A stretch of DNA of 64,000 nt from Syntrophales bacterium (GCA_963668175.1 OY764159.1:3845652-3909651); one strand, 5' to 3'; positions 18,521-64,000 are shown, numbered from the stretch's first letter. The notes: generated by a model from the letters alone, not told the origin. Numbers and translations are program-made.

Positions 18521-18522
18521 AC

Positions 18523-20931
18523 ATGTCAACATCTCTTATCATTGTGGAATCGCCGACCAAGGTCAAGACGATCAAGAAATATCTGCCCGCCAGTTTCGAG
18601 GTCGTCGCATCGGTGGGACACATCAAGGATTTACCCAAGAGCAAGCTCGGGATCGACGTGGAAAACAATTTCGAGCCGACCTATCTGGTTCTGGAAAGCA
18701 AGAAGAAGGTCATCAGCGATCTCAAGAAGGCAGCCAAGCAAGCCGATCATATCTACCTGGCGCCGGACCCGGACCGGGAGGGCGAAGCCATCGCCTGGCA
18801 TATCGCCGAAGAGGTCAAAGCCAAGGGCAAGACGATTGAACGTGTTCTCTTCAACGATCTCACGAAAAACACGATTCTCGAATCGCTCCGGCACCCCCTG
18901 CAGCTCAACTTCAACAAATACGAGGCCCAGCAGACGCGCCGCATCCTGGACCGCCTGGTCGGCTATACGATCAGTCCCATCCTCTGGGAAAAAGTGAAAC
19001 GGGGGCTTAGCGCCGGGCGCGTCCAGTCGGTCGCCGTCCGGCTGATTTGCGACCGGGAAGCGGAGATCAGAAAATTCGTGGCCGTCGAGTACTGGAATAT
19101 CAACGTCCTTCTGGAAGGTTCGGTACCGCCGACGTTCGAGGCCCGGCTTCTCAAGATAGACGGAAAAAAGGCCAAAGTCGAAAACGAGGCCCAGTCCCAA
19201 AATATCGTAGAGACCCTGGAAAAATCGACCTTCATCGTCCGAAAGCTGGAGAAGAAGGAGGTCAGGAAGGCACCGCCGCCGCCGTTTACGACGAGCAAGC
19301 TCCAGCAGGAAGCGTCCAGGTGGCACCGGTTTTCCGCCAAGAAGACGATGAGCGTGGCCCAGAAACTGTACGAAGGCATCGAATTAGGCAAGGAAGGCCC
19401 GGTAGGGCTCATTACCTATATGAGAACGGACTCGGTTCGTATTGCCGAAGACGCCCTGAAGGAGGTAAGGGAGTATATCGTCGCGACCTACGACAAGAGC
19501 TATCTGCCGGACAAGCCCCGCCTGTTCAAGAACGCCGCGGAGGCCCAGGACGCCCACGAAGCCATCAGGCCGTCGTCCCTGGCCTACAAGCCCCAGGATA
19601 TCAAACAATACCTGACTCCGGATCAATTCAAACTGTATCAGCTCATCTGGAACAGATTCGTCGCGAGCCAAATGAATCCAGCCGTATTCGATCAGACGAC
19701 GATCGACATCGGCGCCGGGATATACCTGTTCCGTGCACAGGGACTCGTCATGAAATTCCCGGGTTTCACCGCCCTCTATACCGAAGGCAAAGAGGACAAC
19801 GGGAACGGCGGCGATCCGGAGACGGGCAAGATACTTCCGGCCGTTGCGGAAGGGGAGATCCTCAAGCTTCTCTCCATTACGCCCGAACAGAAATTCACCC
19901 AACCGCCCCCCCGGTTTTCCGAGGCATCCCTTGTCCGGGAACTGGAAGAGAAGGGGATCGGCAGACCGAGCACCTATGCCGCGATTCTCAGTACGATCCA
20001 GGACCGGGAGTATGTGCGTCTCGACAAGAGCAAATTCTTCCCCACCGAACTGGGAGAACTGGTCAACGAACTTCTCGTAAACAATTTCCCGAAAATCCTC
20101 GACGTGGCCTTTACGGCGTCGCTGGAGACGCAACTGGATATGATCGAGGAAGGCAAAACGGGCAGGCAGGAAACCCTGAAGGGTTTTTACCAGCCCTTCG
20201 AAGAGGAACTGAAAACCGCCAAGACTCAGATGAGAAAGGTGAAGGGGGAAGAGACGCCGACCGATCTGACTTGCGACAAGTGCGGCAGCCCCATGGTGAT
20301 CAAATGGGGAAAGAACGGAAAATTCCTGGCCTGCTCCAACTATCCGGCCTGCAAGAATACCATGAACTTTACCCAGGACGAAAACGGCAAGATCGTCCAC
20401 GAAGAAACGCCAAAGACGGAGACCGTCTGCAACAAATGCGGTAAGCCCATGGTCGTCAAGAGAGGCCGGTTCGGTCAGTTTCTGGCCTGTTCGGGCTACC
20501 CGGATTGCAAAAACACAATGAACATCGCCGGCGGCACGGCCGAAACACAACCGGTTGCCGAAGAAGTCACCGATATCAAATGCCCCAAATGCGGCCAGCC
20601 CATGGCCGTAAAAAAAGGCCGGTTCGGAAAATTCCTCGGCTGCACGGGTTATCCCGCCTGCCGGAACATTATGCCGATAAGCACCAACATCCCCTGCCCG
20701 GAAGAAGGCTGTACAGGCTTCCTGACGGAGAAAAGATCCAAGACAGGCCGGTCGTTCTACAGCTGCTCCCGATATCCCCAGTGTAAATACGCGATCTGGA
20801 ACAAACCGCTGCCCGAACCCTGCCCCAAATGCGGCGCCCCGTTCATCGTAGAGAAATATTCGGCCAAAACGGGAAACACCAAGGAATGTATTAAAAAAGG
20901 GTGCGGGTACAAGGAACCCATAGCGCCGTGA
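18523..20931 (+). CDS. topA: DNA topoisomerase I
   Basis: 802 aa. Has the Toprim N-terminus ([17 protein letters not shown]), the catalytic region ITYMRTDS, and four C-terminal Cys4 zinc-ribbon repeats (CxxCG...C..YP.CKN). Confidence 0.97.
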
Positions 20932-50464: not shown

Positions 50465-51475
50465 ATGAACGCACTTATTACGGGCATCACAGGCATGGTC
50501 GGTTCTCATCTTGCCGATTTCCTTCTGGAAAATACGGACTGGACTATCTACGGCATGTGCCGCTGGCGAAGTCCGTTGGACAACGTCGAGCACCTCACCG
50601 ACCGGGCCAACCGCAAGGAGCGGATATTCTTCATCTTCGGTGATTTGTGCGATTATGTCTCCCTGGAAAACGCCGTCGAGGAATCGCGTCCCGACTATGT
50701 CTTTCACCTGGCCGCTCAGAGTTACCCCAAAACCAGCTTCACGTCACCCCTGCAAACCCTCGATACGAATATCCTGGGGACGGAGCGTCTTCTTGAATCA
50801 TTGAGAAGATGTCCCGGCATCGATCCGCTCATCCACGTCTGTTCGTCCTCGGAAGTCTTCGGCCGGGTCCCCCGCGAAAACCTGCCGATTGCGGAAGAAT
50901 GCGCTTTTCATCCTGCGTCCCCCTATGCCATCTCCAAAGCGGGCACCGACCTCCTGGGCAGATTCCACGCTGAAGCATACGGTCAGAAGGTCCTGGTCAC
51001 GCGCATGTTCACCCATACGGGGCCGCGTCGGGGCGACGTCTTCGCCGAATCCACCTTTGCCAAACAGATTGCCATGATTGAAAAAGGATTGATTCCACCT
51101 GTCGTCAAAACAGGCAATCTCAATTCCCTGCGCACCTGGTCCGACGTGCGGGATGCTGTTAGGGCTTACTACATGCTGCTGACCGTCGACCCCGTTCCGG
51201 GGTCTTATTTTAATATCGGAGGGACGTTCTCCTGCACAGTAGGCGACATGCTCGACCATCTCGTTTCCATATCCGCCTGTAAGGACAAAATCAAGGTGGA
51301 GACGGAAGACGCGAGGCTGCGACCCCTCGATGCCGACCTGCAGGTGCCGGATACCGCCAAATTTCAGACGCACACCGGCTGGAAACCGGAAATCCCTTTT
51401 GAAAAGACCATGCAGGATCTCCTCGACTACTGGAGAGACCGTGTCTCCAAAGGAAAGGGTTTCCTGACCAGGTAG
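50465..51475 (+). CDS. GDP-sugar 4,6-dehydratase/reductase-family SDR (Gmd/Rmd-like)
   Basis: 336 aa with the cofactor motif ITGITGMVGSHL and the catalytic SSSEVFG plus YAISK (Ser/Thr-Glu ... Tyr-x3-Lys). Extended SDR fold. Confidence 0.8.
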   Translation: MNALITGITGMVGSHLADFLLENTDWTIYGMCRWRSPLDNVEHLTDRANRKERIFFIFGDLCDYVSLENAVEESRPDYVFHLAAQSYPKTSFTSPLQTLDTNILGTERLLESLRRCPGIDPLIHVCSSSEVFGRVPRENLPIAEECAFHPASPYAISKAGTDLLGRFHAEAYGQKVLVTRMFTHTGPRRGDVFAESTFAKQIAMIEKGLIPPVVKTGNLNSLRTWSDVRDAVRAYYMLLTVDPVPGSYFNIGGTFSCTVGDMLDHLVSISACKDKIKVETEDARLRPLDADLQVPDTAKFQTHTGWKPEIPFEKTMQDLLDYWRDRVSKGKGFLTR

Positions 51476-51498: not shown

Positions 51499-52446
51499 AT
51501 GAATAAAGATGCAAAAATCTTCGTAGCCGGACACAGGGGCCTGGTCGGCTCGGCCGTAACAAGGGAGTTGATCCGGGAGGGATATAACCATCTGTGCCTT
51601 CGAGCCCATGAAGAACTCGATCTGACCAGTCAGCAGGCGGTGGACGATTTCTTTACCGCCGAAAGGCCCGAATACGTTTTCCTATGCGCGGCCAAGGTGG
51701 GCGGGATCCTGGCCAACAGCACCTATCCGGCCCAGTTCATTTACGAAAATATCATGATCGGCGCGAACATCATCCATGCAAGCCATAAAAGCGGCGTCAA
51801 GAAACTCCTCAACCTGGGATCGTCCTGCATCTATCCCAAAGACGCCGCCCAGCCCCTCAAGGAAGACGATTTGCTGACCGGCAAGCTGGAGCCAACCAAC
51901 GAGCCTTACGCCGTCGCCAAGATCGCCGCCATCATCCTCTGCCGTTCCTATAACAGACAGTACGGCACCAATTTTGTATCAGCCATGCCGGCGAATCTCT
52001 ATGGCCCGCATGACAATTTCAACCTGGAAACGGCGCACGTTTTGCCCTCCCTGCTGCGGAAGTTCCACGAAGCCAAGGTTGCGGCAAGCTCCTCTGTTGA
52101 AATATGGGGATCGGGCAGCCCCGTCCGCGAATTCCTTTACGTTGAAGACCTGGCACGGGCTCTGTTGCATATCATGCGGCACCACGATGCGGATGACATC
52201 GGCGATTTCATCAATATAGGCACGGGGCGCGGCATCACGATCAAGGCGTTGGGTGAGATGATAGCCGGTATTGTCGGCTTTGCGGGCGATATCCGTTTCA
52301 ACACCGGCAAGCCGGACGGTATGGCCGAAAAGATTCTCGACACGGGGCGGATGAGCGAGCTGGGCTGGAAAGCATCGACAAGCCTGGAAGAAGGGATCAG
52401 GATGACCTACCGGTGGTATCTTGACGAACGTCCCCGCATAATCTGA
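51499..52446 (+). CDS. fcl: GDP-L-fucose synthase (GDP-4-keto-6-deoxy-D-mannose 3,5-epimerase/4-reductase)
   Basis: 315 aa, near-collinear with E. coli Fcl motifs recalled from memory: IFVAGHRGLVGSA, AAKVGGI.AN.TYPA.FIYEN, LGSSCIYPK, EPTNEPYA.AKIA, YNRQYG, MP.NLYGPHDNF. Confidence 0.92.
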   Translation: MNKDAKIFVAGHRGLVGSAVTRELIREGYNHLCLRAHEELDLTSQQAVDDFFTAERPEYVFLCAAKVGGILANSTYPAQFIYENIMIGANIIHASHKSGVKKLLNLGSSCIYPKDAAQPLKEDDLLTGKLEPTNEPYAVAKIAAIILCRSYNRQYGTNFVSAMPANLYGPHDNFNLETAHVLPSLLRKFHEAKVAASSSVEIWGSGSPVREFLYVEDLARALLHIMRHHDADDIGDFINIGTGRGITIKALGEMIAGIVGFAGDIRFNTGKPDGMAEKILDTGRMSELGWKASTSLEEGIRMTYRWYLDERPRII

Positions 52447-52455
52447 ATATCTATC

Positions 52456-53229
52456 TTGCAAAAAACAGCGAGCGAGACGATAGCGAACGCATCAGATAAC
52501 AACAGCCTCGCCGGGACCACATCCATCATTCTGGCGGGAGGGAAAGGGACACGACTCAGCGGTACCGTGAATGATCGCCCCAAGGTGCTGGCGGCGGTTA
52601 ACGGAAGGCCATTCCTGGTGTATCTCCTCGACCAGTTGAAAGCCGCCGACGTCCGGTGTGTCGTTTTGTGCACGGGTTACATGGGTGACATGGTCCGCGA
52701 ATCCTTCGGCAGAGATTATGACGGGATGGCGCTTGCCTATTCCCACGAGACCGTCCCTCTGGGGACGGGCGGAGCCCTCCGTCTGGCGTTGCCATTGCTT
52801 AACTCGGACCCTGTCCTCGTCATGAACGGCGATTCTTACTGTCAGCTCGATCTGGAGACATTCTTCGTCTGGCGTCGCGAACAGCATATGCCGAACGCTA
52901 TGGTATTGACGTTTCTTGACGATGTCGCCCGTTTCGGCAGCGTCGAAATGGACGGCCGGAATCGAATCACCCGTTTTCGTGAAAAGACGCAAAAAAGGTC
53001 CCCCGGATTCATCAATGCGGGCGTCTATCTGCTTACCAGAGAATCAATCGCGCGTATTCCGTCGGACCGGCCGGTTTCCCTGGAACGAGATATCTTTCCA
53101 ACCCTAATCGAGGAAGGTATCACCGGCTTTCAAAGCCGGGGCCGGTTTATCGACATCGGGACCCCCGATTCCTATCGGGAAGCGGAAACATTCTTTGCCG
53201 ATCCGGGCGTTGGGCGGAATCGCCATTGA
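52456..53229 (+). CDS. sugar-1-phosphate nucleotidyltransferase (HddC/ManC-like)
   Basis: 257 aa with the motif IILAGGKGTRL...DRPKVLAAVNGRPFL. The start is uncertain, because TTG at 52456 is the only in-frame start candidate after the fcl stop. Confidence 0.8.
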   Translation: MQKTASETIANASDNNSLAGTTSIILAGGKGTRLSGTVNDRPKVLAAVNGRPFLVYLLDQLKAADVRCVVLCTGYMGDMVRESFGRDYDGMALAYSHETVPLGTGGALRLALPLLNSDPVLVMNGDSYCQLDLETFFVWRREQHMPNAMVLTFLDDVARFGSVEMDGRNRITRFREKTQKRSPGFINAGVYLLTRESIARIPSDRPVSLERDIFPTLIEEGITGFQSRGRFIDIGTPDSYREAETFFADPGVGRNRH

Positions 53230-53283: not shown

Positions 53284-54279
53284 ATGGTCATAAGCAAGAC
53301 ACCCTACCGGATCTCCTTTTTCGGCGGCGGAACCGACTATCCGCAGTGGTACTCGAAGCACGGCGGGACAGTCCTTTCCACGACCATCGATAAATACTGC
53401 TATATCACGTGCCGCGTGTTGCCGCCTTTTTTCGCCCACCGCTACCTGATCGTATGGTCACACATCGAAGCCGTATCCACGTTATCCGAGATACTCCACC
53501 CGGCCGTGCGGGAAGGGCTGAAATATCTTGGCGTAAACGGCGAATCGGGACTGGAGATCCATCACCAGGGCGATCTTCCGGCCAGGGCAGGCATGGGTTC
53601 CAGTTCGTCCTTTTCCGTCGGATTGATCAAGGCCGTCATGGCCCACCAGGGCAAGATGATCGGCAGACACGATCTGGCGTTGAAGGCGATCGATCTGGAG
53701 CAGAACATCCTGAAGGAGAATGTCGGATCTCAAGACCAGGTGGCGGCGGCCTACGGCGGTTTTAACCATATCTCCTTTTTCCCAAACGGCGAGATCCGTG
53801 TCGAGCCCGTCATCATGGATTCCGAACGTCTCGCGGCTTTAGAATCGAGTATGATGCTCATCTACACGGGTACCAGCCGCCTTTCCTCCGAAGTGGCCGG
53901 CGCCGTGATCGCCAATCTTGATAAAAAACAGGATGAGATGAAGCAGATGAGCCGCATGGTCGATCAGGGCCTCGCCATCTTGAACGGCCAGGGCAGCCTG
54001 GATGACTTTGGGTATCTGATGCACGAAAACTGGCTCTTGAAGCAATCGGTCAACGAAAACACCTCCAACGACGTCGTCAACAGGATCTACGATAGTGCCC
54101 TTAAACACGGAGCCCTTGGCGGCAAACTTCTCGGCGCGGGCGCCTCGGGTTTCATGGTCTTCTATGTTCCCCCCGAAAAGCAGACGGCCGTGCGCGCGGC
54201 ATTGGGCGGATATCTCCATGTCCCCTTCAAGTTCGAGCACGAAGGCAGCTCGATTGTCTATTATACGACGCGAATCTGA
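53284..54279 (+). CDS. GHMP-family sugar kinase (heptose-7-P/fucose kinase-like)
   Basis: 331 aa with the N-terminus KTPYRISFFGGGTDYPQWY, GHMP motif II PARAGMGSSSSF and motif III GGKLLGAGASGF. Confidence 0.85.
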   Translation: MVISKTPYRISFFGGGTDYPQWYSKHGGTVLSTTIDKYCYITCRVLPPFFAHRYLIVWSHIEAVSTLSEILHPAVREGLKYLGVNGESGLEIHHQGDLPARAGMGSSSSFSVGLIKAVMAHQGKMIGRHDLALKAIDLEQNILKENVGSQDQVAAAYGGFNHISFFPNGEIRVEPVIMDSERLAALESSMMLIYTGTSRLSSEVAGAVIANLDKKQDEMKQMSRMVDQGLAILNGQGSLDDFGYLMHENWLLKQSVNENTSNDVVNRIYDSALKHGALGGKLLGAGASGFMVFYVPPEKQTAVRAALGGYLHVPFKFEHEGSSIVYYTTRI

Positions 54280-54293
54280 AGGCGGAGAATTTT

Positions 54294-55739
54294 ATGATGC
54301 ATGACATCAATCCCATAAAACAAGATTTGACCGGTCTGGATATGCTGTTGATCAATCCCAGTACCGACTTTGAAGCTGAAATATTGCAGAAAAGAACGAT
54401 GCGGATCGAGAAGGACGTCCCGAATCAGGAAACACCGCCGTCCAATATCGGCTATCTTATGGCTGCCGCAAAAAAAGAAGGTTTGAAAGTAAAATTCGTA
54501 GATATGGTTGTGGATAGCGTCAGCGTAGATGAGCTATTGCGTTTCGTCGCCGATCTCAAGCCGTCATTGGTCGGGTTCAGTGCCTTTACCAAACAGATTT
54601 GCGCGGCAGGACAGATCGCTGCCCAAATAAAGCAGGCGGCTCCCTCGGTCATGACGTGTGTCGGTGGCTGCCACGCCATCGCCATGCCGAAAGCGACCCT
54701 CGAGGAGTTTCCCGGCATCGATTTTGTCTTTGCCGGAGAGGCGGAAACGCAGTTGCCCCACATTTTCAACTGCCTTCAGAAGCCCCGCGAGTTGGTCAAA
54801 CTGCACGGTGTCGTAACCAGGGACACAGCGGATTTTTCACCTTTGTACATCGACGATTTGGATAACCTGCCTTTTCCCGCCTGGGAGGATTTCGATCTAA
54901 CCAGGTACCCCGGGAATTTGCCTCATCGGACAAACCGGGAACTACCCATGATTACAACCAGAGGCTGCCCCTATAAGTGCTCCTTTTGCTGTCGCTCCAA
55001 CGGGGATAGAATCCGCTATCGAAGCGTTAACTCGGTGATTTCCGAGATCAAGAGGAATATCGAGGATTTCGGGTGCGAAGCCATCGTCTTCAACGACGAA
55101 AATTTCATTCTCGATAAGAAGCGGACGGACTATCTCTTCTCCGAATTCAAGAGGCAGGGCATCAACCGGAAGATTAAATGGGGATGCAGCATGCGTGTCG
55201 ATAACGCAACCCCGGCGTTGATGCAGAAGATGAAGGAGGCCGGCTGCTTTTACGTCTTCTTCGGCTTTGAAAGCGCCAACGACGATACGCTTATACGCAT
55301 TCAGAAGAGAACGGCCGTCGCTCAGATGCTCCAGGCGGTGAATGCGGCCAAACGCGCCGGAATTGTTCCGGTCGGATCTTTCATCATCGGCCTCCCCGGC
55401 GACACAAAGGAAGATATCTACAAGGCCATAGCATTGGGCAAGGAATTGGACCTCTACTCGATCACTTTCCCGATCGCCGTTCCCTATCCCGGGACAGCCT
55501 TGCGGGAACAAGCCTTGAAGCACATGTACGGCATGAGAGTTCTATCCAACAACTGGGAATACTACGGAAGAAAAGCGGTTAATTCCAAGGAAGATTTTGA
55601 AATTCTGGAAAGCGACGACATGCCCGCCAAGATGCGAAAGGAGTTGCAGGATCTCGCCTACGCCACGCATCCGAAGAAGATATTTGATGAATACGTGAAG
55701 CGATTGAACGAATGGCGGTCAAGCCAAGGCCTGCCGTAA
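54294..55739 (+). CDS. cobalamin (B12)-binding-domain radical SAM enzyme, copy 1
   Basis: 481 aa with an N-terminal Rossmann-like B12-binding region (LLINPS...VGFSAFT...GGCHA) and the radical SAM cluster motif GCPYKCSFC. Confidence 0.85.
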   Translation: MMHDINPIKQDLTGLDMLLINPSTDFEAEILQKRTMRIEKDVPNQETPPSNIGYLMAAAKKEGLKVKFVDMVVDSVSVDELLRFVADLKPSLVGFSAFTKQICAAGQIAAQIKQAAPSVMTCVGGCHAIAMPKATLEEFPGIDFVFAGEAETQLPHIFNCLQKPRELVKLHGVVTRDTADFSPLYIDDLDNLPFPAWEDFDLTRYPGNLPHRTNRELPMITTRGCPYKCSFCCRSNGDRIRYRSVNSVISEIKRNIEDFGCEAIVFNDENFILDKKRTDYLFSEFKRQGINRKIKWGCSMRVDNATPALMQKMKEAGCFYVFFGFESANDDTLIRIQKRTAVAQMLQAVNAAKRAGIVPVGSFIIGLPGDTKEDIYKAIALGKELDLYSITFPIAVPYPGTALREQALKHMYGMRVLSNNWEYYGRKAVNSKEDFEILESDDMPAKMRKELQDLAYATHPKKIFDEYVKRLNEWRSSQGLP

Positions 55740-55862
55740 AGGCAACGTTGTGGCTTTGCGTGCGGCGTTTTCCGACGCAAATCGCAACGAACGATACCGG
55801 CCTCCCGTAAGAACGACGGCCGAATCACACCTCTTGAATCTTTTTTCGAAGGAGCGCGTAAC

Positions 55863-56384
55863 ATGCAGAAGCGTGCCGTTATCATAACCGCCCAGGGTTT
55901 TCAGGATGAGGAATTCGTCTATCCCTACTATCGCCTCCTGGAGGCAGGCTTCACGGTGGACGTGGCTACCAAAGACAAGGCGGCCGTGACAGGCAAGTTC
56001 GGCGTGCCGGCCCGGCCGACGATCGGCACGGATGATATTAAAAGTGAGAATTACGATCTCGTTCTTCTTCCCGGCGGCTTCGAGGCGCCTGATCGGCTGC
56101 GCATCCTGCCGGAAGTTCTTGCCTTTATCAGAGATATGGATAAGCAAAAAAAGCTGGTCGCTGCCATCTGCCACGGCCCGTGGGTATTGATTTCGGCGGG
56201 GATCACCAGGGGCCGCAAGATGACCGGCTACTGGAGCATAGAGGCCGATCTTCGCAATTCCGGGGCGGATTACCGACACAAAGCGCCGGTGGTCGTCGAC
56301 GGCAATCTGATCACCTCGCCTCACTACAACAATAATGGCGATTTCATGAAGGCCGTGATCGCCTATTTCGAACAGAGTAAATAA
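55863..56384 (+). CDS. DJ-1/PfpI-family protein
   Basis: 173 aa with the nucleophile elbow AAICHGPWVL and LLPGG. Confidence 0.85.
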   Translation: MQKRAVIITAQGFQDEEFVYPYYRLLEAGFTVDVATKDKAAVTGKFGVPARPTIGTDDIKSENYDLVLLPGGFEAPDRLRILPEVLAFIRDMDKQKKLVAAICHGPWVLISAGITRGRKMTGYWSIEADLRNSGADYRHKAPVVVDGNLITSPHYNNNGDFMKAVIAYFEQSK

Positions 56385-56390
56385 CTGTCC

Positions 56391-57266
56391 ATGAGATCTC
56401 TCGACTTCGGCCTGCGCGAAGACGCCGCAAAGAACATGAGTCCGGAAATATCGCTGGAGATGTACAGAAACATCTGCCGGTGCCGGTTCTTCGACGAGGC
56501 AGTCATCAAGGCCGTCCGGGACGGCCGCATAACCTATCAGGTATACCTCTCGCGAGGACAGGAGGCGGTCGCCGCAGGCCTCGCTTCCGCCGTTGCCGGC
56601 TCCATGCTGTTCACACAGCACCGCTGCCATGCCTACTATCTTGCGTTCGGCGGACGGCCGGAGAGGCTCCGCGACGAACTGCTGGGGCGACCCGGCGGGA
56701 CAAGCAGCGGCCGGGCCGGCTCGAACTGCATTCAGTGCCACGATGAAAACCTTGTCATGTTCGGTCATCACGGTCTGATCGGTGAAAACGTCCCGCAGGC
56801 GGTCGGAGCGGCCCTCGGCAGCGGCAGAAATACGCTTTGCATTGTCGGCGACGGTGCAGCGGAAGAGGACTACGTCTACCCTTCTCTCGGTTTCGCCGTC
56901 ACCCATCGCCTGCCGGTTCTTTTTATCTGCGACGACAACGACCTGTCGATCCTGACGCCGATCAGCGTACGGCGATCATGGAAGATTACCGATGTCGCCA
57001 GGGGCCTCGGCATGCCTGCCGTCGATATCGCCGACGATCCCTGGACGGTCCGGTCCGTCGCCCGAGAGTTGAGCACGTCCCTTCCGGCCCTGATGAACAT
57101 CTATACCTGCCGCATGAACTGGCATGTCGGTGTCGGAATCGACGGCCCTCCCGAATGGGACCGCCTTTCCCTCGTTACGCAAAAACTGGCGGACTTGGGG
57201 CTTTCGGCCCCGGCAGAATGCATTCGCAAGGAAGAGCAAACCGCCATGGAGAAGCTATGGGCCTGA
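56391..57266 (+). CDS. thiamine-diphosphate-dependent dehydrogenase E1 alpha-like subunit
   Basis: 291 aa with the ThDP-binding motif GDGAAEED...LPVLFICDDND. Confidence 0.8.
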   Translation: MRSLDFGLREDAAKNMSPEISLEMYRNICRCRFFDEAVIKAVRDGRITYQVYLSRGQEAVAAGLASAVAGSMLFTQHRCHAYYLAFGGRPERLRDELLGRPGGTSSGRAGSNCIQCHDENLVMFGHHGLIGENVPQAVGAALGSGRNTLCIVGDGAAEEDYVYPSLGFAVTHRLPVLFICDDNDLSILTPISVRRSWKITDVARGLGMPAVDIADDPWTVRSVARELSTSLPALMNIYTCRMNWHVGVGIDGPPEWDRLSLVTQKLADLGLSAPAECIRKEEQTAMEKLWA

Positions 57267-58156
57267 CCGTAGCGGATACGATCCGGGAAATCAGCAGGCG
57301 GCATCTCGAAGAGAACAACGGCCTTCTGCTCGGCCAAGCGATTACGGCCGTCGGCTGGATCAACAACACGGTCCCCGATTGCCGGAACATCGTCGAACTG
57401 CCCATGACCGACGTCGCTGGCGCCGGCATCGCCGTCGGTGCAGCCATGGTCGGCAGGCGGCCCATATTTGTCATCAGGTTCCAGGATTTTCTCATACTGA
57501 ACGGCAGCCCGCTTATCTTTTACGCCGCCAAATCGAAGGAACTCCACGGGAGAAGCACCCCCATTTTCGTCCGGGCGATTGCAACCGACGGGATCGGGCC
57601 CGTTCATTCGGGCGTCTTGCACAGCGTCTTCATGCATTTTCCGGGTTTCCGGATCTGTTCGCCCATGACGCCCGGCGAATATCGAACTATCTGGGACGAC
57701 TTTATGGCCCATGACGATCCCATGATCGTGAGCGAACATCGAGCGAGTTTTGCCAATACCCGCGAACTCGCCGACATTGTCCACGACGATGCCGTCGTGA
57801 CCCTTTACCCCATCTCGGCGACCCGATTCGCAGCGGAGGAAGCGGCAGCGCAGCTTTTATCCGTGGGAATCAAATGCAACGTCCTGCACATCCTGTGGCT
57901 GAAACCCTTTACTGCTGACCGGAGACTGATCGAGCCCCTGCGCTCGTCCCGCCGCGGCATCGTGATCGACGCGGGACATGAAATCGCCGGCGCTTCCCGG
58001 TCTATCGCCTACGAACTGACACAGGCGACGGGAATTCCCGTTGCGGCCCTGGGACTTGAGGACAAAACGAAATGCCTGTGTCCGCCCCTGAAAAACGAAA
58101 CCCCCACGGCAGAGCGGATCGTGACGGCCGTGCGGACACTCCTCAGGACGGCTTAG
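57257..58156 (+). CDS. E1 beta / transketolase pyrimidine-binding + C-terminal domain subunit
   Basis: The real start is MGLTVADTIREI at 57257, inside the longer track ORF 56837..58156. It overlaps the alpha-subunit stop by 10 nt. The sequence pattern ELPMTDVAGAGIAVGAAMVGRRP is typical of the beta subunit. Confidence 0.8.
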   Translation: MGLTVADTIREISRRHLEENNGLLLGQAITAVGWINNTVPDCRNIVELPMTDVAGAGIAVGAAMVGRRPIFVIRFQDFLILNGSPLIFYAAKSKELHGRSTPIFVRAIATDGIGPVHSGVLHSVFMHFPGFRICSPMTPGEYRTIWDDFMAHDDPMIVSEHRASFANTRELADIVHDDAVVTLYPISATRFAAEEAAAQLLSVGIKCNVLHILWLKPFTADRRLIEPLRSSRRGIVIDAGHEIAGASRSIAYELTQATGIPVAALGLEDKTKCLCPPLKNETPTAERIVTAVRTLLRTA

Positions 58157-58162
58157 AATATT

Positions 58163-58846
58163 ATGCCGGAATACGATAAGGGCATCGTCAGCAAGCCTTG
58201 GGGTTACGAATATCTCATGTACCAGAGCGACCGGATCGGCATCTGGTTCCTGCACATCGCGGCAGGGCGGAAGACCTCTCTTCATTGTCATCCCGCCAAG
58301 AAGACGGGCTATATCCTCCTGTCGGGAGAAGCAGAAGTATCGTTTTTGAATGACGCCACCCGCCTCAAGGCGATCAGCAAACTGATGATCCGGGAGGGTT
58401 TGTTTCACTCGACGAAGGCCCTGTCTCCGGAAGGCGTGTCCGTCATCGAGGTGGAAAGCCCGCCGGACAAGACCAATCTCGTGCGGCTGGACGACGCCTA
58501 TGGACGCAAGGAAGAACCCTACGAGGGCCTCGATTCGGTCGTACCCATGACAGATGAATGCATCATGTTTACGGCACCAGAACTTGACCGGCCGCTCGTC
58601 TATCAAATTGCAGGCGTTACCATGGTCATCGAACGCCGCAATGATCTTGCGGCATTGCGGACGCGCCCTTCGGGGGAAGTCATCCTGGTCCTTGACGGCG
58701 GCCTGGTGAGCAAGAACAATGATCCTATTCTGAGTTCGGGTGACGTGGTCACGATCAGCACATTTTCCTATCTGGCCGACACATTCGCTTCGCCGCAAGG
58801 TATGTCGTTCATATCGTTCCGCCGGGAGCAGAATCAAGATGCGTAG
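58163..58846 (+). CDS. cupin-domain protein (phosphomannose-isomerase-type/sugar ketoisomerase-like barrel)
   Basis: 227 aa with KPWGYEYLM...SLHCHPAKKTGYILLSGEAEV, a His-containing cupin motif. Confidence 0.7.
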   Translation: MPEYDKGIVSKPWGYEYLMYQSDRIGIWFLHIAAGRKTSLHCHPAKKTGYILLSGEAEVSFLNDATRLKAISKLMIREGLFHSTKALSPEGVSVIEVESPPDKTNLVRLDDAYGRKEEPYEGLDSVVPMTDECIMFTAPELDRPLVYQIAGVTMVIERRNDLAALRTRPSGEVILVLDGGLVSKNNDPILSSGDVVTISTFSYLADTFASPQGMSFISFRREQNQDA

Positions 58847-60806
58847 TGTGCCGGCGTCCGGTTCTCCATGGCGCGTAGGACTTGTCCAGATCAACAACAG
58901 TTTTGCCGGCGCCTGTTATCTGCCGTATGCCGTAAGTCTTCTGCAGGCCCACTTTCAGCTTCATTCGGGGAAAGCCGGCGCCTTCTCATTCCTCTTGCCG
59001 ATTTATCGACGAATACCCGTGGATGACGCGATCCGGCACCTGGCCGGGGCCGACATCGTCGCCATCAGCGTTTCGTCCTGGAACTTCAGGGCGTCGCTGG
59101 AAATCGCCAGGCGCCATAAGGAAATTCATCCCCAGGCGTTGATCATGCTGGGCGGCCCGCACATCCCCGGCAACGCGGAACCGTTGCTCAGGGCCCATCC
59201 GTGGGTCGATCTTGTCTGTCACGGCGAAGGAGAGATCCCGTTTCTCAGGATATTGGATGCCTGGCCGGAACGCCAATGGGACGACATCCCTTCCATCAGT
59301 TATCTCGAAGGGGAGCGATTCGTCAGCCGGCCGGACGAGTCCCGCATCGCCGAACTGGATTCCGTGCCGTCGCCGTACCTCGCGGGCACATTCGAGCCGT
59401 TGCTGAGGGAAGATCGAGGGCACCAGTGGCTGGCCCTTTGGGAGACCAATCGCGGCTGTCCCTTCTCCTGCTCTTACTGCGATTGGGGGGCCGCGACGCG
59501 ATCGAAGTTGTATTGTTTCGGTCTGGAGCGGCTCAAGAAGGAAATCGGCTGGTTCGCCGAGCACCGGATCGAGTTTATCTTCTGTTGCGACGCCAATTTC
59601 GGCATCCTGCCGCGGGACCTCGACATTGTCAAAGCCGTGGCCGACGCGAAGAAGACGTCCGGATTTCCCCAGGCCCTGTCGGTGCAGAACACCAAAGACT
59701 CGGACCGTTCGTTCGAAATTCAGAAAGCCCTGGCCGAAGCGGGACTCAGCAAGGGGGTCAACCTGGCCATGCAGTCGATGCATCCGGAAACACTGGCCCT
59801 GATCGGCCGCCGCAACATCTCCCCGGACGTCTTTCAGGACCTGCAACAGCGGTACAACCGGGACCGGATCGAGACGTTCACGGACATCATCATCGGGCTG
59901 CCCGGGGAAACCTACACTTCCTTCACCTCGGGGGTCGAAAAGATCATCGGCAACGGCCAGCACAACAGGATCCAGTTCATCAATCTTTCCATTCTGCCCA
60001 ATGCCCCCATGGCCGACCCGGCGTACCGGCAGATGCATGGCCTCATCTCGGCGGTATCGAAGATCATCAACATTCACGGAGCCCCTGCCGACTACGGCGA
60101 CGGCATTTCCGAGACGCAGGAACTGGTGGTGGGAAGCAACGCCATGCCGAAGGAGGATTGGCGGCGGGCCAGGGTCTTCGCCTGGATGACATCCCTTCTC
60201 TACTTCGATAAAATCCTCCAGATTCCGATGATGCTCCTGAAGGCCGAGACGGGTATCGATTGCGCCAGACAGATTGAAGCGTTCATGGATCTGCCCGCAG
60301 GAAAATTTCCCCTGCTGGAGGAACTGGCCCGGTTCTTCCGGGACGAGGCGGCGGCCATACAGGAGGGCGCGCCCGAGTTCTTCCATGCCCCCGACCGCTT
60401 GGGCATATACTGGCCTCACGACGAATATGCCTATATCCGTCTGAGCACCGAAGGTAAACTGGAGGCCTTCTACAGAGAGGCCCGCCAGCGGATGGCGGAA
60501 CTGGCCGTGAGCGAAGGACACCCATGCCCGCCCTGGCTTCCTGATGCCATCCGCCTTAACGGTATGTTGCTCAAACAGCCCTTTCACAGAGACGATATCA
60601 CATTCCGATCCCAGTACGATCTCCTAGGCACCTGCGACACAATCCGCCGCACGGGCGGAGGCCGTCTTATACCGGGACCGGCTTCCTACGTGGTGAACCG
60701 TTCCTCCGAGCGATGGCAGGGATGGGAGGAATGGTCGCGCGAAGTCGTCTGGTACGGCAACAAGCGGGGGGCCTACCTCTATCATTTTTCCCGAGGGGAG
60801 CAATAG
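58839..60806 (+). CDS. cobalamin-binding-domain radical SAM enzyme, copy 2 (long form, 655 aa)
   Basis: The real start is MRSVPASGSPWRVGLVQINN at 58839, inside track ORF 58740..60806, with an 8-nt overlap on the cupin stop. Has a B12-binding-like N-terminus (IVAISVSSWN...LGGPH), the cluster motif GCPFSCSYC, and about 160 aa of extra C-terminal sequence relative to copies 1 and 3. Confidence 0.8.
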   Translation: MRSVPASGSPWRVGLVQINNSFAGACYLPYAVSLLQAHFQLHSGKAGAFSFLLPIYRRIPVDDAIRHLAGADIVAISVSSWNFRASLEIARRHKEIHPQALIMLGGPHIPGNAEPLLRAHPWVDLVCHGEGEIPFLRILDAWPERQWDDIPSISYLEGERFVSRPDESRIAELDSVPSPYLAGTFEPLLREDRGHQWLALWETNRGCPFSCSYCDWGAATRSKLYCFGLERLKKEIGWFAEHRIEFIFCCDANFGILPRDLDIVKAVADAKKTSGFPQALSVQNTKDSDRSFEIQKALAEAGLSKGVNLAMQSMHPETLALIGRRNISPDVFQDLQQRYNRDRIETFTDIIIGLPGETYTSFTSGVEKIIGNGQHNRIQFINLSILPNAPMADPAYRQMHGLISAVSKIINIHGAPADYGDGISETQELVVGSNAMPKEDWRRARVFAWMTSLLYFDKILQIPMMLLKAETGIDCARQIEAFMDLPAGKFPLLEELARFFRDEAAAIQEGAPEFFHAPDRLGIYWPHDEYAYIRLSTEGKLEAFYREARQRMAELAVSEGHPCPPWLPDAIRLNGMLLKQPFHRDDITFRSQYDLLGTCDTIRRTGGGRLIPGPASYVVNRSSERWQGWEEWSREVVWYGNKRGAYLYHFSRGEQ

Positions 60807-60810
60807 ACGC

Positions 60811-61773
60811 ATGCGCTGTCGCCCGCTGGGCAGAACGGGTATCCAAGTCTCGGAGATAGGTTTCGGTTCCTGGGGCATCGGAGGGATCGTGCAGGATGCT
60901 ACCGCCTACGGCCTTACCGACGACCGCATCTCGAAGCGGGCATTGGAGGCGGCCTTCGCTGCAGGCGTGACGTTTTACGACACGGCGGCCCTGTATGGCT
61001 ACGGACACAGCGAGGAACTGATCGGCGAAACGCTCCATAAAGTGCGGGACCGTATCGTGATTTCCACCAAAGCGGGTTACGTCAATTTCGGCGGGGCTCA
61101 GGATTTCTCGCCCAAGTATCTGCGTAAATCGCTGGAAGGAAGCCTGAGACGCCTGCAGACCGATTATGTCGACGTCTTCCAGCTCCACGACCCGCCGATC
61201 GATCTTCTGGAGCGGGACGGTTCCATCATGGATGCCATGGAAACTTTGCGCTACGAAAACAAGATCCGCGTCATCGGCATCTCCACACGATCCCCGGCGG
61301 ACAGCCTGGTCGCTGTAAACCGCCTGGGATTCCAATCCATCCAGGTCAATTTCAACCTGGTGGACCAACGGGCGTTAGAGATAGGCCTGTATCCCGCCTG
61401 CCGGGAGCAAGGCGCGGGCATCATCGTCAGGACCCCTTTGTGCTTCGGCTTCCTGACAGGAAAGTATAGCGCCGGGGACAACTATGACGAAGGGGATCAT
61501 CGCAGCCGCTGGAAGCCCGAGCAGATCAGTCTATGGGCCGAGGCCAACAAACTTTTTCAAACGGCATTGACTGATCGGGAGGGACAGAACAACGTGCACG
61601 TCGCGCTTCGTTACGTTCTGTCCTTCGAGGACGTTTCCACGACGATACCCGGCATGCTGACGGAAGAGCATGTCGCCGAAAACACAATGGCAAGCGATAT
61701 GGGCCCACTGCCCCCCTCCGTCCTTGCCGCATTTGCGGACATTTACCGTAATCACAGTTTCTTTTGCCGATGA
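60811..61773 (+). CDS. aldo/keto reductase
   Basis: 320 aa with the typical N-terminus MRCRPLGRTGIQVSEIGFGSWG, FYDTAALYGYGHSE and YVDVFQLH. Confidence 0.9.
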   Translation: MRCRPLGRTGIQVSEIGFGSWGIGGIVQDATAYGLTDDRISKRALEAAFAAGVTFYDTAALYGYGHSEELIGETLHKVRDRIVISTKAGYVNFGGAQDFSPKYLRKSLEGSLRRLQTDYVDVFQLHDPPIDLLERDGSIMDAMETLRYENKIRVIGISTRSPADSLVAVNRLGFQSIQVNFNLVDQRALEIGLYPACREQGAGIIVRTPLCFGFLTGKYSAGDNYDEGDHRSRWKPEQISLWAEANKLFQTALTDREGQNNVHVALRYVLSFEDVSTTIPGMLTEEHVAENTMASDMGPLPPSVLAAFADIYRNHSFFCR

Positions 61774-61836: not shown

Positions 61837-63327
61837 ATGAAATCTCTTTTACTGATTAACCCGCCCAATTCCGACCAGATACGCTCCCCCGGCTACTATT
61901 TGCTGCCCCTCGCTCTCCTGTATCTGGCCGGCTCTGCGAGGGAAGTGGCAGATGTTACGATCCTGGACCTGAATGTTGCAAAAAGTAAATTCTTCCGTTC
62001 GAAGAAGGAAGGGACATTTTCCTATACGGGCGCAGTGGAGGAGGAAATAGTCAGGCTCAGACCCGATTTCGTCGGCATAACCTGCCTTTTTTCGGCCCAG
62101 TTCGATATGATGATGCAAATCGCCGACGCCGTCAAGAGGGCCAACCCATCCTCGACCGTCATCCTCGGGGGCATGCATCCGACAATTTTCCCGCATGAAA
62201 TCCTGTCCAACTGTCCCAGCGTCGATGCCGTCGTCATCGGCGAAGGGGAAATCACTCTGAAGCAAATGCTCTCGCTCGACGGGGATCACTGGAATCGGAT
62301 CGGCGGGCTTGCCTTCAGAAACAGCAAGAATGAAATCATCATCAACGAAAAAAAAGATTTCATCGAGGACCTCGACGCACTGGCGCCGGCAGCATACGAC
62401 CTGTTCAACTTCGAGGACTACATGCTCGATTCCAGCGGATGGTACAACCCCAAGAAACTGTCCATCGGAACGTCTGCACCGATTCTGACGAGCAGGAGCT
62501 GCCCCTTCAAATGCAGTTTCTGCGGGATGAACCTGGTCATGGGAACCCGTTTCCGGTCGCGAAGCGCCGAGGAAGTCTTCAAGGAAATCGAATATCTCTA
62601 TTCCGTCCACAACGTCCGATACTTCAACATTATGGACGACAATTTTACCCTCGATAAGAAGAGGATCAAGAAAATCTGCCGGTACATCATCGACAACAAG
62701 CTCGATATCTCCTTCGATATGCCGAACGGCATCATGACGGCGACCCTTGACGACGACGTTATCGATGCCCTGGCCGAGGCCGGTTTTGCCTATTGCTTCC
62801 TTGCCATTGAGAGCGGTTCTGATTACATAAGAAACACCGTCATGCATAAACAGCTTTCAAAGGAAACGATCTTCCGCGTCGTCAATTCTTTCCGGAGACA
62901 TCCCGAAGTCCACCTGGCCGCCTTTTTCCTTATGGGCATGCCGGAGGAAACAAAAGAAACGCTGGACGAAACCTACGACCTGATAGAAGCCCTGGATATC
63001 GATTCATTCAAAATGTCCGTGGCGACACCGTTTCCCGGAACCAAGCTTTTCAATCAGTGTCTGAAGGACGACCTGTTTCTCATAGACAAGAAAAAACTCG
63101 GTTCCCTCTGGCGGGACATCAACTGGTACCAGCGAATTCTCAACGTCGACCCGCCTTTTTTCTTCAAGCCCTATGCCGTGGATATTCCGACCCTGGAAGA
63201 ATATGTCCATAAATTTGAAGCTATCAGGCATCAGAAGCATCTGATCACCGTAAGCAAAGGAAGGCAGACCCTGAGCGTAACCCAGGCCGTGGCCGACTAC
63301 CGGCGGAGCAACCCCGGCGCCCCATGA
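61837..63327 (+). CDS. cobalamin-binding-domain radical SAM enzyme, copy 3
   Basis: 496 aa with LLLINPP...VGITCLF...LGGMHPT (B12-binding-like) and the cluster motif SCPFKCSFC. RBS AAGGGAGA. Confidence 0.85.
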   Translation: MKSLLLINPPNSDQIRSPGYYLLPLALLYLAGSAREVADVTILDLNVAKSKFFRSKKEGTFSYTGAVEEEIVRLRPDFVGITCLFSAQFDMMMQIADAVKRANPSSTVILGGMHPTIFPHEILSNCPSVDAVVIGEGEITLKQMLSLDGDHWNRIGGLAFRNSKNEIIINEKKDFIEDLDALAPAAYDLFNFEDYMLDSSGWYNPKKLSIGTSAPILTSRSCPFKCSFCGMNLVMGTRFRSRSAEEVFKEIEYLYSVHNVRYFNIMDDNFTLDKKRIKKICRYIIDNKLDISFDMPNGIMTATLDDDVIDALAEAGFAYCFLAIESGSDYIRNTVMHKQLSKETIFRVVNSFRRHPEVHLAAFFLMGMPEETKETLDETYDLIEALDIDSFKMSVATPFPGTKLFNQCLKDDLFLIDKKKLGSLWRDINWYQRILNVDPPFFFKPYAVDIPTLEEYVHKFEAIRHQKHLITVSKGRQTLSVTQAVADYRRSNPGAP

Positions 63328-64000
63328 CGATGGAAAAGCAAGACCGAATTCAGAACGGCCTAGACCTTTCCTTTCTTCAGGGTAAGCACGTCCTGGTAAC
63401 CGGCGGTACGGGATTCATCGGACGCGGTTTTGTAGAGGCGCTGCTGAATTCCGGGGCCAAAATCAGGATCACGGTCCACGAACAACTCTCTCCGTTCGAC
63501 AGGGACCGCATTGAAACTGTCTACGCCGATCTCACGGAGCAGGAGGATTGTATCGCTGCATGCAGCGGCATGGATGTCGTCATTCATGCCGCGGGCGGTG
63601 TAGGGAACGCCGGTAACATCCGGTCCAATCTGGTTGCGTCCCTGGCGGATAACCTCGTCATGACCGTGAGGATGCTGGAGGCCGCGTCGGAACGCTGCGA
63701 AAAAATTCTTATCTTCTCAAGCGGTACGACCGGATACCCTCCTTACGATTACCCCGTTCGCGAAGAGGACATGTGGACGGGTCCGCCGGCACCGGTGTAC
63801 TTCGGATACGGCTGGATGCGGCGCTATTTCGAACTTTTCGGCGAATATGTCGGTTCCGTTTCCCCTCTTGAAGTCATGGTTTGCAGACCTACGGCTGTGT
63901 ACGGCCGCCACGACCGTTCCGGCCACATCGTCCCGGCACTTGTCCATCGCGCTTTGTCCGGCGAAAACCCGCTGACGGTCTGGGGAAGCGGCAAGGAAGA
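63324..64000 (+). CDS. NAD-dependent epimerase/dehydratase-family SDR; 3' end beyond window
   Basis: Absent from the track because it is open at the window end. ATG at 63324 overlaps the previous stop (ATGA). Translation reads MTMEKQDRIQNGLDLSFLQGKHVLVTGGTGFIGRGFVEALL..., carrying a GxxGxxG Rossmann motif. Confidence 0.8.
   Translation, partial: MTMEKQDRIQNGLDLSFLQGKHVLVTGGTGFIGRGFVEALLNSGAKIRITVHEQLSPFDRDRIETVYADLTEQEDCIAACSGMDVVIHAAGGVGNAGNIRSNLVASLADNLVMTVRMLEAASERCEKILIFSSGTTGYPPYDYPVREEDMWTGPPAPVYFGYGWMRRYFELFGEYVGSVSPLEVMVCRPTAVYGRHDRSGHIVPALVHRALSGENPLTVWGSGKE

Follow-up and report, generated by a model that had tools for sequence, protein, structure and literature searches.

What does a pair of genes for E1-like, thiamine diphosphate (ThDP)-dependent subunits do inside a sugar operon, when no other component of a 2-oxo-acid dehydrogenase complex is encoded beside it? 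This question is raised by a stretch of 64,000 nucleotides from a Syntrophales bacterium (GCA_963668175.1 OY764159.1:3845652-3909651; the whole stretch is called the window below), in which an E1alpha-like and an E1beta-like gene stand among genes for nucleotide-sugar synthesis. A first-pass annotation of this DNA had proposed that the pair transfers a two-carbon unit onto the 4-keto sugar made by the Gmd-like dehydratase of the same operon. Judged by sequence, the pair is a member of a distinct group of short E1alpha/beta proteins, which share 50-77% identity across phyla. Gene context suggests, as the most likely function of this family, the addition of a short carbon branch to a keto-sugar bound for a cell-surface glycan. 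The more specific proposal, that the pair is a stand-alone alpha2beta2 ThDP-dependent decarboxylating carboligase acting on a GDP-linked keto-sugar, has in our judgement an even chance of being right.

The two subunits have the domains and the fold of E1 proteins. The alpha subunit had been described as a protein of 291 amino acids with a GDGAAEED...CDDND ThDP motif, shorter than typical E1alpha proteins, and the beta subunit as a protein of 300 amino acids whose gene overlaps that of alpha by 10 nt. We recovered the same alpha reading frame and motif, and its shortness is evident against the 360-400 residues of solved E1alpha chains. Bases 57257-57266 are indeed common to both genes, but the beta protein has 299 residues, the stop codon having been counted before. 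Pfam matches of both proteins exceed the gathering scores, and E1_dh in alpha, Transket_pyr and Transketolase_C in beta and an E1-like fold, by which the E1 superfamily is defined, are all present. Among proteins in the PDB, alpha matched human pyruvate dehydrogenase (PDH) E1alpha best (3e-17) and also E1alpha of branched-chain 2-oxo-acid dehydrogenase (BCKDH), and beta matched PDH E1beta proteins best (~1e-11). AlphaFold2 models were obtained with mean confidence (pLDDT) of 87.5 for alpha, whose top Foldseek matches were BCKDH and PDH E1alpha, and 84.4 for beta, whose top match was 1w85_B. Query-normalised template modelling (TM) scores to E1alpha and E1beta chains were 0.82-0.86 (~0.83) at ~20% identity; for alpha, however, the 0.83 falls to ~0.65 when normalised by the targets, which are 70-100 residues longer.

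Within this superfamily, the pair stands apart from the known dehydrogenase components. The first-pass annotation had noted that no E2 or E3 gene lies nearby, and tblastn searches with E. coli AceF and Lpd (E<=1e-3) agreed with it: homologues were found neither in the whole 64-kb window nor in 85 related loci with ±10 kb flanks, a scope that leaves room for E2 and E3 genes elsewhere in these genomes. Proteins with lipoyl, 2-oxoacid_dh or Pyr_redox_2 domains were likewise absent from the Pfam tables of seven loci. NCBIfam scores of 113.6 bits to TIGR03182 (cut-off 393.85), 79.2 to TIGR03181 (411.35) and 73.3 to NF006667 (321) are only a quarter to a third of the equivalog or subfamily cut-offs for PDH, BCKDH and acetoin dehydrogenase E1, and so place the pair outside these groups. 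Together with the active-site signature described below, they support the earlier view that the pair is separate from acetoin, PDH and BCKDH E1. By its scores, the pair is a divergent ThDP enzyme of the E1 heterotetramer type, not a conventional E1.

The family is large and widely spread. A word-indexed search returned >1100 relatives for each subunit. Among the matches listed, alpha proteins are mostly 292-301 aa long with 58-95% identity and beta proteins ~300 aa with 69-95%, and the best annotation they carry is 'thiamine pyrophosphate-dependent enzyme', the others being automatic assignments to acetoin or pyruvate dehydrogenase E1. Searched with a profile, 1.84 billion representatives yielded 169 clusters at 50% identity (E<=1e-30), of which the full-length ones were aligned; in a scan that took one genome per species, 123 species had relatives. 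The closest relatives (76% identity) are in Desulfuromonadales/Geobacteraceae, and by its best matches alone the window would probably be taken for DNA of a Desulfuromonadales-like bacterium. Other carriers are Nitrospira, Brocadia (anammox), Elusimicrobia, Ignavibacteria, KSB1, Verrucomicrobia, Omnitrophota, Bdellovibrionales, Magnetococcus and Magnetovibrio, and further Colwellia, Firmicutes, Chloroflexi, Parcubacteria of the candidate phyla radiation (CPR), Methanosarcinales and DPANN archaea. Hence, outside actinomycetes an enzyme of this kind is unusual, as had been expected, in the literature but not in genomes, where relatives occur in 123 representative species of bacteria and archaea.

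Active-site residues define the family and show one unusual replacement. The ThDP-Mg motif GDG-X(24-27)-N is intact and aligns with that of human E1alpha; its G153, D154, G155 and N183 are invariant in 29 family members. A signature of Y52, H77-R78-x-H80, H126, EED160, D182-N183, L-S-[IV]-L-T, R194-R195-x-W197 and W244-H245 runs through ~35 alpha clusters (257-316 aa), with Tyr at the position of human His63. The edge of the family is clean: the next-best proteins have 300-340 aa and the typical E1_dh residues His52, Ser/Thr126, Gly160 and Asn182, and the rest of the signature is absent from them. Alpha H245 and beta H117, the canonical His residues of reductive acylation, are both kept and invariant, which does not discriminate between functions because the same residues could serve as acid or base in carboligation. 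The replacement is in beta. The Glu that activates ThDP is conserved in nearly all ThDP enzymes, and one in the PYR domain of beta is expected in the E1 superfamily. At this site (human E1beta 'PISE'), the beta subunit has Asp52 in a register that is unambiguous around 'AGIAVGAAM'. Asp occupies the position in 76 of 78 E1beta family members and in two alpha-beta fusion proteins, and two controls keep Glu, namely a canonical-like second E1beta in the same Elusimicrobia locus and the E1beta of a Streptomyces plasmid.

What the family acts on is indicated by its neighbours, which were counted in the 43 non-redundant loci, out of the 85, that have full ±10 kb flanks. The beta gene is always 3′ of the alpha gene in the 85 loci, and the frames nearly always overlap. 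Around the pair, genes for B12-binding radical S-adenosylmethionine (SAM) enzymes occur in 39 of the 43 loci, DegT-family (ColD-like) genes in 32, a GHMP kinase and/or a nucleotidyltransferase also in 32, a DJ-1 gene adjoining the pair in 28, a cupin in at least 28, a galactarate/altronate-dehydratase-like gene (GD_AH) beside DJ-1 and E1alpha in 16 and an aldo-keto reductase (AKR) in 8. The recurrent order has nucleotidyltransferase and GHMP kinase as one group and HAD and GD_AH as another, then DJ-1, (cupin), E1alpha, E1beta, (cupin), radical SAM and, further on, a short-chain dehydrogenase/reductase (SDR) and DegT. The DegT-family neighbours are particularly informative, with motifs S-x-Y-x-A-H...EGG or SFYYSHH..T.EGG and His in place of the Lys that binds pyridoxal phosphate (PLP) in 43 of 43 proteins. 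His for Lys is the defining trait of the ColD/E1/SpnQ 3-dehydratases, which convert nucleoside diphosphate (NDP)-4-keto-6-deoxy sugars into NDP-4-keto-3,6-dideoxy sugars (PMC8987622). These neighbours therefore suggest that the pathway yields an NDP-4-keto-3,6-dideoxy sugar, the type of acceptor used by the branching enzyme YerE (PMC9306805).

A second line of evidence is a network of gene fusions that centres on the cupin. The cupin is attached to the C-terminus of E1beta in L003/L007 (526 aa; L003 10867-12450) and in a Woesearchaeota locus (L076), to the N-terminus of E1alpha in P0391/P0244, in an Omnitrophota locus (L065, 5894-7528) and in five further loci, and to the C-terminus of DJ-1 in Verrucomicrobia (L042 7224-8447, L047 and L054). 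Moreover, it is attached to the C-terminus of an Fcl-like SDR in proteins of ~576 aa, which score 426 bits against the GDP-fucose synthase model (L002 13057-14796). Fusions of this kind suggest that the E1 subunits, DJ-1 and an enzyme of the GDP-sugar epimerase/reductase type take part in one process, and they argue for E1 action at the level of the nucleotide sugar. It is these cupin fusions to an Fcl-like GDP-sugar enzyme, with the ColD/E1-type 3-dehydratases, that lead us to read the pair as a carboligase that uses ThDP and takes an NDP-4-keto sugar as its substrate.

Which genes are present, the family to which the pair belongs, its active-site motifs, neighbours and fusions, and the lack of E2 and E3 in the loci were observed directly; from these observations we infer which donor and acceptor are used, with what regiochemistry and in what order the steps proceed, and what DJ-1, the cupin and the radical-SAM enzymes contribute. 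According to our model, a hexose or heptose would first be turned into its GDP-sugar by the GHMP kinase together with the nucleotidyltransferase, and the Gmd-like SDR would make a 4-keto-6-deoxy sugar from it. A ColD-type enzyme dependent on pyridoxamine phosphate (PMP), whose gene is present in most relatives and is expected here beyond the end of the window, would then strip the 3-OH. The E1 pair would decarboxylate a 2-oxo acid, here most simply pyruvate, to a ThDP-bound acyl-anion equivalent, and this hydroxyethylidene-ThDP would add to the C-4 carbonyl to give a 4-C-acetyl tertiary alcohol. Subsequently, an AKR or SDR could reduce the side-chain ketone to a 1-hydroxyethyl group, the cupin and the Fcl-like SDR could tune stereochemistry, and the B12-radical-SAM enzymes may C-methylate the product. 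In this model, the first-pass proposal is kept in part: a stand-alone pair in a nucleotide-sugar pathway is in fact present, and its context fits a carboligase for NDP-4-keto sugars, but the acceptor is less likely the direct Gmd product than the 3,6-dideoxy-4-keto product of the ColD-like enzyme, since ColD/E1-type genes accompany the pair in 32 of 43 loci. A heptose is also possible as the acceptor sugar, and pyruvate may not be the donor in every case. On a more tentative footing, it is possible that the E1 pair, cupin, DJ-1 and B12-radical-SAM genes form a so far unrecognised and widely transferred module for a C-branched, C-methylated GDP-dideoxy sugar of surface glycans in lineages that dominate in the environment but have been little studied, namely anammox bacteria, Nitrospira, Geobacter relatives, Omnitrophota, CPR and DPANN, with a ThDP site activated by Asp and not by the near-universal Glu.

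Several observations weigh against this model. If branching consumes C-4, the Fcl-like 4-reductase is hard to place. DJ-1, the cupin, GD_AH and several radical-SAM partners are without counterpart in known branching pathways, so the true reaction may exceed a simple acetyl transfer. In the window itself, the ColD-like gene is predicted from synteny only. The AKR proposed to reduce the side chain accompanies the pair in just the 8 loci counted above, and Gmd-like genes recognisably like that of the window occur in 13 of 43 loci only, other SDRs being present. Furthermore, the change from Glu to Asp at the cofactor-activating site is unusual and might signal altered chemistry.

Alternatives to pyruvate-derived branching differ in how much of the model they keep. 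An unlikely variant retains the ThDP carboligation but takes a longer or functionalised 2-oxo acid made locally, so that a long acyl or a polyhydroxyalkyl branch, as in erwiniose or caryophyllose, would arise and not a C2 branch. The GD_AH family is expected to give 2-keto-3-deoxy sugar acids, which the gene beside DJ-1 and E1alpha would make in its 16 loci; in Nitrospira, a class I/II aminotransferase gene is directly upstream of E1alpha; and YerE-type enzymes take C4-C8 functionalised 2-oxo acids from clustered aldolases or transamination (PMC9306805). However, neither GD_AH nor such an aminotransferase is in the operon of the window, where a dedicated donor supply is not visible, and E1 subunits remain 50-77% identical with or without GD_AH, which points to one common donor. 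The same sugar acid leads to a different and rather improbable scheme, in which the pair would do no more than decarboxylate a 2-oxo acid, at a stage before nucleotide activation: the 2-keto-3-deoxy sugar acid from GD_AH would become a deoxy-aldose one carbon shorter, to be taken up by the GHMP kinase and the nucleotidyltransferase. Recurrence of the order nucleotidyltransferase, GHMP kinase, HAD, GD_AH, DJ-1, E1alpha, E1beta speaks for it, as does the presence of kinase and nucleotidyltransferase, which implies that the pathway takes in a free sugar or a sugar phosphate. It is opposed by the restriction of GD_AH to a minority of loci and its absence from the window, by the cupin fusions that tie E1 subunits to an Fcl-like GDP-sugar enzyme, and by ColD-like and 4,6-dehydratase partners that already explain deoxygenation.

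To a similarly small degree we credit a chain extension like that of transketolase or DXS, in which a C2 unit is added to an aldehyde (of a sugar phosphate, or at C-6) and lengthens the backbone without a branch. The fold is common to split transketolase and DXS, a cupin like phosphomannose isomerase (PMI) could isomerise a ketose phosphate, and HddA/HddC-like kinase and transferase with HAD phosphatases resemble a heptose-phosphate route; yet in structure and sequence the pair is nearer to E1 dehydrogenases than to transketolase or DXS, an NDP-sugar SDR is among the fusion partners of the cupin, and where GmhA and GmhB are encoded they would make heptose by the standard route. Cleavage of a C-C bond, as an acetoin-cleaving or retro-acyloin reaction that trims the side chain of a heptose or octose derivative, seems very improbable to us. 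Acetoin dehydrogenase E1 does cleave an acyloin, and GDP-heptose genes stand beside the pair in some loci, GDP-heptose having been detected in Kuenenia (bioRxiv 10.64898/2026.04.20.719630); but the loci encode no acceptor system, either E2 or CoA, for a cleaved acyl unit, sugar pathways offer no known precedent, and a context of deoxygenation and methylation fits building and not trimming. Least likely of all is that the pair is a conventional acetoin, pyruvate or branched-chain 2-oxo-acid dehydrogenase E1, with E2 and E3 encoded elsewhere and its position in a sugar operon coincidental. Automatic annotation does label homologues 'acetoin:DCPIP oxidoreductase' or 'pyruvate dehydrogenase E1', and both His residues of reductive acylation are present. 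Against these stand 85 loci without any E2 or E3, a synteny with sugar genes that is invariant across phyla, CPR bacteria and DPANN archaea included, the fusion of E1 subunits to a sugar-pathway cupin, the low equivalog scores and the altered active-site residues.

The operon that contains the pair is on the + strand (Table 1), with gaps of -10 to 123 nt between its genes; the first-pass annotation had already called it a sugar operon.

Table 1. Genes of the operon, numbered from the first base of the window
Feature	Coordinates	Strand	Evidence
NDP-sugar 4,6-dehydratase (Gmd-like SDR)	50465..51475	+	Pfam GDP_Man_Dehyd 4e-71; NCBIfam gmd 159 bits (cut-off 415)
Fcl-like SDR (GDP-L-fucose-synthase-like 3,5-epimerase/4-reductase)	51499..52446	+	NCBIfam GDPFucSynFcl 459 bits (cut-off 500)
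Sugar-1-phosphate nucleotidyl(guanylyl)transferase, ManC/HddC-like	52456..53229	+	Pfam NTP_transferase 2e-28
GHMP sugar kinase, HddA-like	53284..54279	+	GHMP_kinases_N and GHMP_kinases_C; NCBIfam HddA 139 bits (cut-off 600)
B12-binding radical SAM enzyme 1 (variable accessory)	54294..55739	+	B12-binding and Radical_SAM domains
DJ-1/PfpI-family protein with Cys-His nucleophile	55863..56384	+	Pfam DJ-1_PfpI 4e-49
E1alpha-like ThDP (PP-domain) subunit, short form	56391..57266	+	291 aa; Pfam E1_dh 4e-24; GDGAAEED...FICDDND
E1beta-like (PYR and C-terminal domains) subunit	57257..58156	+	299 aa and stop; ATG at 57257; Transket_pyr and Transketolase_C
Cupin, His-x-His...His motif (PMI-like)	58163..58846	+	227 aa; weak Cupin_2 and MannoseP_isomer matches
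B12-radical SAM enzyme 2, KedN5-like C-methyltransferase family	58839..60806	+	NCBIfam B12_rSAM_KedN5 274 bits, below cut-off
Aldo-keto reductase, candidate side-chain ketoreductase	60811..61773	+	Pfam Aldo_ket_red 2e-53
B12-radical SAM enzyme 3	61837..63327	+	B12-binding and radical SAM families
5′ part of a further SDR gene, cut by the window end	63330..64000	+	72% identical to L007 16986-17957

Upstream of the operon are the housekeeping genes mfd, two surA-like genes and uvrA. The Gmd-like SDR is predicted to make a 4-keto-6-deoxy intermediate, with nucleotide and sugar specificity uncertain because its gmd score is below the cut-off; the best NCBIfam matches of the nucleotidyltransferase, mannose-1-phosphate guanylyltransferase and HddC, are each under cut-off as well. 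The 'CHG' of DJ-1 is kept in at least 90% of 51 family members, and H41, H43, H82, E96 and E98 of the cupin, which is of the metal type, are invariant, a profile search of the PDB with the cupin having found generic cupins only (best E-value 4e-4). For the second radical-SAM gene, the start codon at 58839 was placed from the open reading frame (ORF) and a 655-aa homologue. No ColD-like gene is inside the 64-kb window; however, the SDR gene cut by the window end has a counterpart in L007 that directly precedes a ColD-like gene (17959-19167), and a ColD-like gene is therefore expected just past base 64000.

Long ORFs also cover the pair in other frames: 55719-56906, 57101-57784 and 57857-58897 on the - strand, and 56837-58156 on the + strand with a TTG start. 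We rejected these antisense and upstream-extended ORFs as genes; they are shadow ORFs of a GC-rich coding strand without independent support, and the recurrence of antisense ORFs in other loci only mirrors conservation of the sense genes.

Some neighbours vary between loci. The first radical-SAM gene of the window is missing from a relative contig of 95% identity, in which the GHMP kinase and DJ-1 genes are separated by no more than an 89-aa ORF; the gene may have been gained or lost recently, or the short ORF may be a remnant. Wherever related loci have a KedN5-like B12-radical-SAM gene and an AKR gene (~13 of 85), the two are found side by side, and they may form a sub-module of two enzymes. 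Matches of radical-SAM proteins to P-methyltransferases had raised a phosphonate pathway as a candidate, which was dropped since all-against-all clustering of the neighbours gave no conserved PEP-mutase-like protein and a single locus (L056) has an acetolactate-synthase-like ThDP gene. The Nitrospira aminotransferase gene (~8760-9965 in L050, L052, L053, L058, L059, L061 and L066) could supply a 2-oxo-acid donor; these loci are without DJ-1 and cupin. GmhA is encoded in 3-4 and GmhB in 6 of the 85 loci, neither of them in the window. In L022, L027 and L046 a complete set of GmhA, HddA-like, GmhB and HddC-like genes adjoins the E1 pair, suggesting a GDP-heptose substrate at least in loci of this type.

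Other ThDP genes and genes of glycan assembly were also observed near the pair. A second, more canonical E1alpha/beta pair adjoins the short one in L002/L017 (7981-9952), L054, L062 and L082; it scores 242 and 248 bits against PDH E1 models, keeps Glu and is again without E2 and E3. An acetolactate-synthase-like gene with the TPP_enzyme_N/M/C architecture of YerE is in the E1-pair cluster of one locus only, that of a Desulfuromonadales metagenome-assembled genome (L056 2504-4018), and no IlvI-like gene was found in the window. Flagellar genes (FliK-like, FlhB-like, YcgR/PilZ) adjoin cassettes in L003/L007 (1300-4327) and L066 (2041-2763), which hints at flagellin glycosylation in those genomes, and Geomonas has GT2/TPR and GT61 genes upstream of its cassette.

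Our results may help to explain a sugar of anammox bacteria. Kuenenia stuttgartiensis has a full cassette (L091/L092 3716-17452) with nucleotidyltransferase, GHMP kinase, a ColD-like protein ('STFFSHHISTMEGG'), SDRs, E1alpha, E1beta, NUDIX, DJ-1, an Fcl-cupin fusion, GD_AH, HAD and B12-radical SAM. The S-layer O-glycan of this organism contains a 174.09-Da residue that was never identified and was tentatively taken as a dimethyl-deoxyhexose 'or even something else' (PMC5088730), and GDP-heptose has been detected in its cells (bioRxiv 10.64898/2026.04.20.719630). The formula of the 174.09-Da residue, C8H14O4 (174.0892), is shared by a 3,6-dideoxy-4-C-(1-hydroxyethyl)hexose residue and by a C-methyl-3,6-dideoxyheptose residue. 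The residue could thus be the product of the cassette, although the agreement is a coincidence of mass and no evidence of identity; the pathway for an unexplained S-layer sugar may thereby be assigned.

More generally, the sequences present a distinct and widespread family of the E1 type, which is found in glycan clusters for GDP-sugars, has unusual partner genes and carries Asp at the ThDP-activating site. To our knowledge, what is known of E1-type enzymes that branch sugars comes from genetics in a small number of actinomycete antibiotic clusters, and how they work has been described as unknown. A compact and highly conserved family with carriers in more than 100 species offers many orthologues for biochemical reconstitution, and with them an activation site for ThDP in which Asp naturally replaces Glu. 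In organisms that cannot be cultured, its genes may also serve as markers from which to predict C-branched glycan sugars and, if our model is true, the family would add carboligases that take ketone sugar acceptors to the biocatalysis toolbox.

Comparison with known systems shows which parts of this pathway have precedents. Heterotetrameric PDH, BCKDH and acetoin E1 share with the pair the fold, the ThDP-Mg motif, both catalytic His residues and overlapping alpha/beta genes, whereas the present loci are without E2 and E3, alpha is ~70-100 residues shorter, beta has Asp52 for Glu, alpha has Tyr for human His63 and further signature positions are changed. The surrounding enzymes resemble those of the GDP-colitose and Campylobacter jejuni GDP-3,6-dideoxyheptose pathways in HddA/HddC-like activation, a 4,6-dehydratase, a His-type PLP/PMP 3-dehydratase, a cupin and an Fcl-like SDR; those pathways use a Gmd/DdahA-type dehydratase, a ColD-type C3-dehydratase, an epimerase and an Fcl/ColC-type reductase (PMC8987622, PMC10440746), but neither a ThDP enzyme nor B12-radical SAM or DJ-1.

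In the avilamycin (AviB1/AviB2) and paulomycin (Pau11/Pau12 = Plm8/Plm9) pathways, genetic evidence shows that two-carbon sugar branches depend on E1alpha/beta pairs that have no E2, and inactivation of pau11 abolishes paulomycin production (PMC4425429, PMC4802897, PMC4753412). In its gene context our pair is like them, being without E2 and E3 among deoxysugar genes that make a 4-keto sugar. Pau11, with 325 aa, is also an alpha subunit shorter than classical E1 (PMC4425429, PMC4753412, PMC4802897). Its cluster encodes the AKR Pau7, which reduces the C-4′ acetyl branch (PMC4753412), and the AKR of the window may by analogy have the same role. The actinomycete enzymes, in contrast, belong to antibiotic pathways and act on dTDP-type or already glycosylated sugars, whereas the operon here is of the GDP type for surface glycans; the subunits here are shorter (291 and 299 aa), have Asp for the activating Glu and are accompanied by conserved DJ-1, cupin and B12-radical-SAM partners, which are not described for the actinomycete systems. 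As a proxy for AviB we had considered an E1 pair found by tblastn on the plasmid pSGRIFU1 of Streptomyces griseofuscus (L090 9004-14534), and rejected it because this orphan pair adjoins genes for a condensation-domain protein, an acyl carrier protein and a phosphopantetheinyl transferase, not sugar genes; it is a further case, of another kind, in which secondary metabolism employs an E1 pair outside a dehydrogenase.

A precedent for the reaction logic is given by YerE and its relatives: with pyruvate or a longer 2-oxo acid as donor, they attach the ThDP-bound acyl anion at the C-4 carbonyl of CDP-4-keto-3,6-dideoxyglucose, and a reductase acts next (PMC9306805). YerE, ErwE, MMAR_2332 and MyGE (yersiniose, erwiniose, caryophyllose and gastriose) share with the chemistry predicted here a 2-oxo-acid donor, an NDP-4-keto-3,6-dideoxy acceptor and subsequent NAD(P)H reduction, and they too serve glycans of Gram-negative and environmental bacteria (PMC9306805). 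Clustering with a 4,6-dehydratase and a His-type 3-dehydratase, as expected of YerE-type enzymes, is seen for the E1 pair in 32 of the 43 full-flank relatives, with the 3-dehydratase of the window only predicted. YerE-type enzymes are single chains of the acetolactate-synthase-like TPP_enzyme_N/M/C type, whereas the pair has an E1/transketolase-type architecture on two chains, so a shared function, if any, would be convergent. By analogy, the pair would work most like the enzymes of the AviB1/AviB2 type, with a reaction logic like that of YerE.

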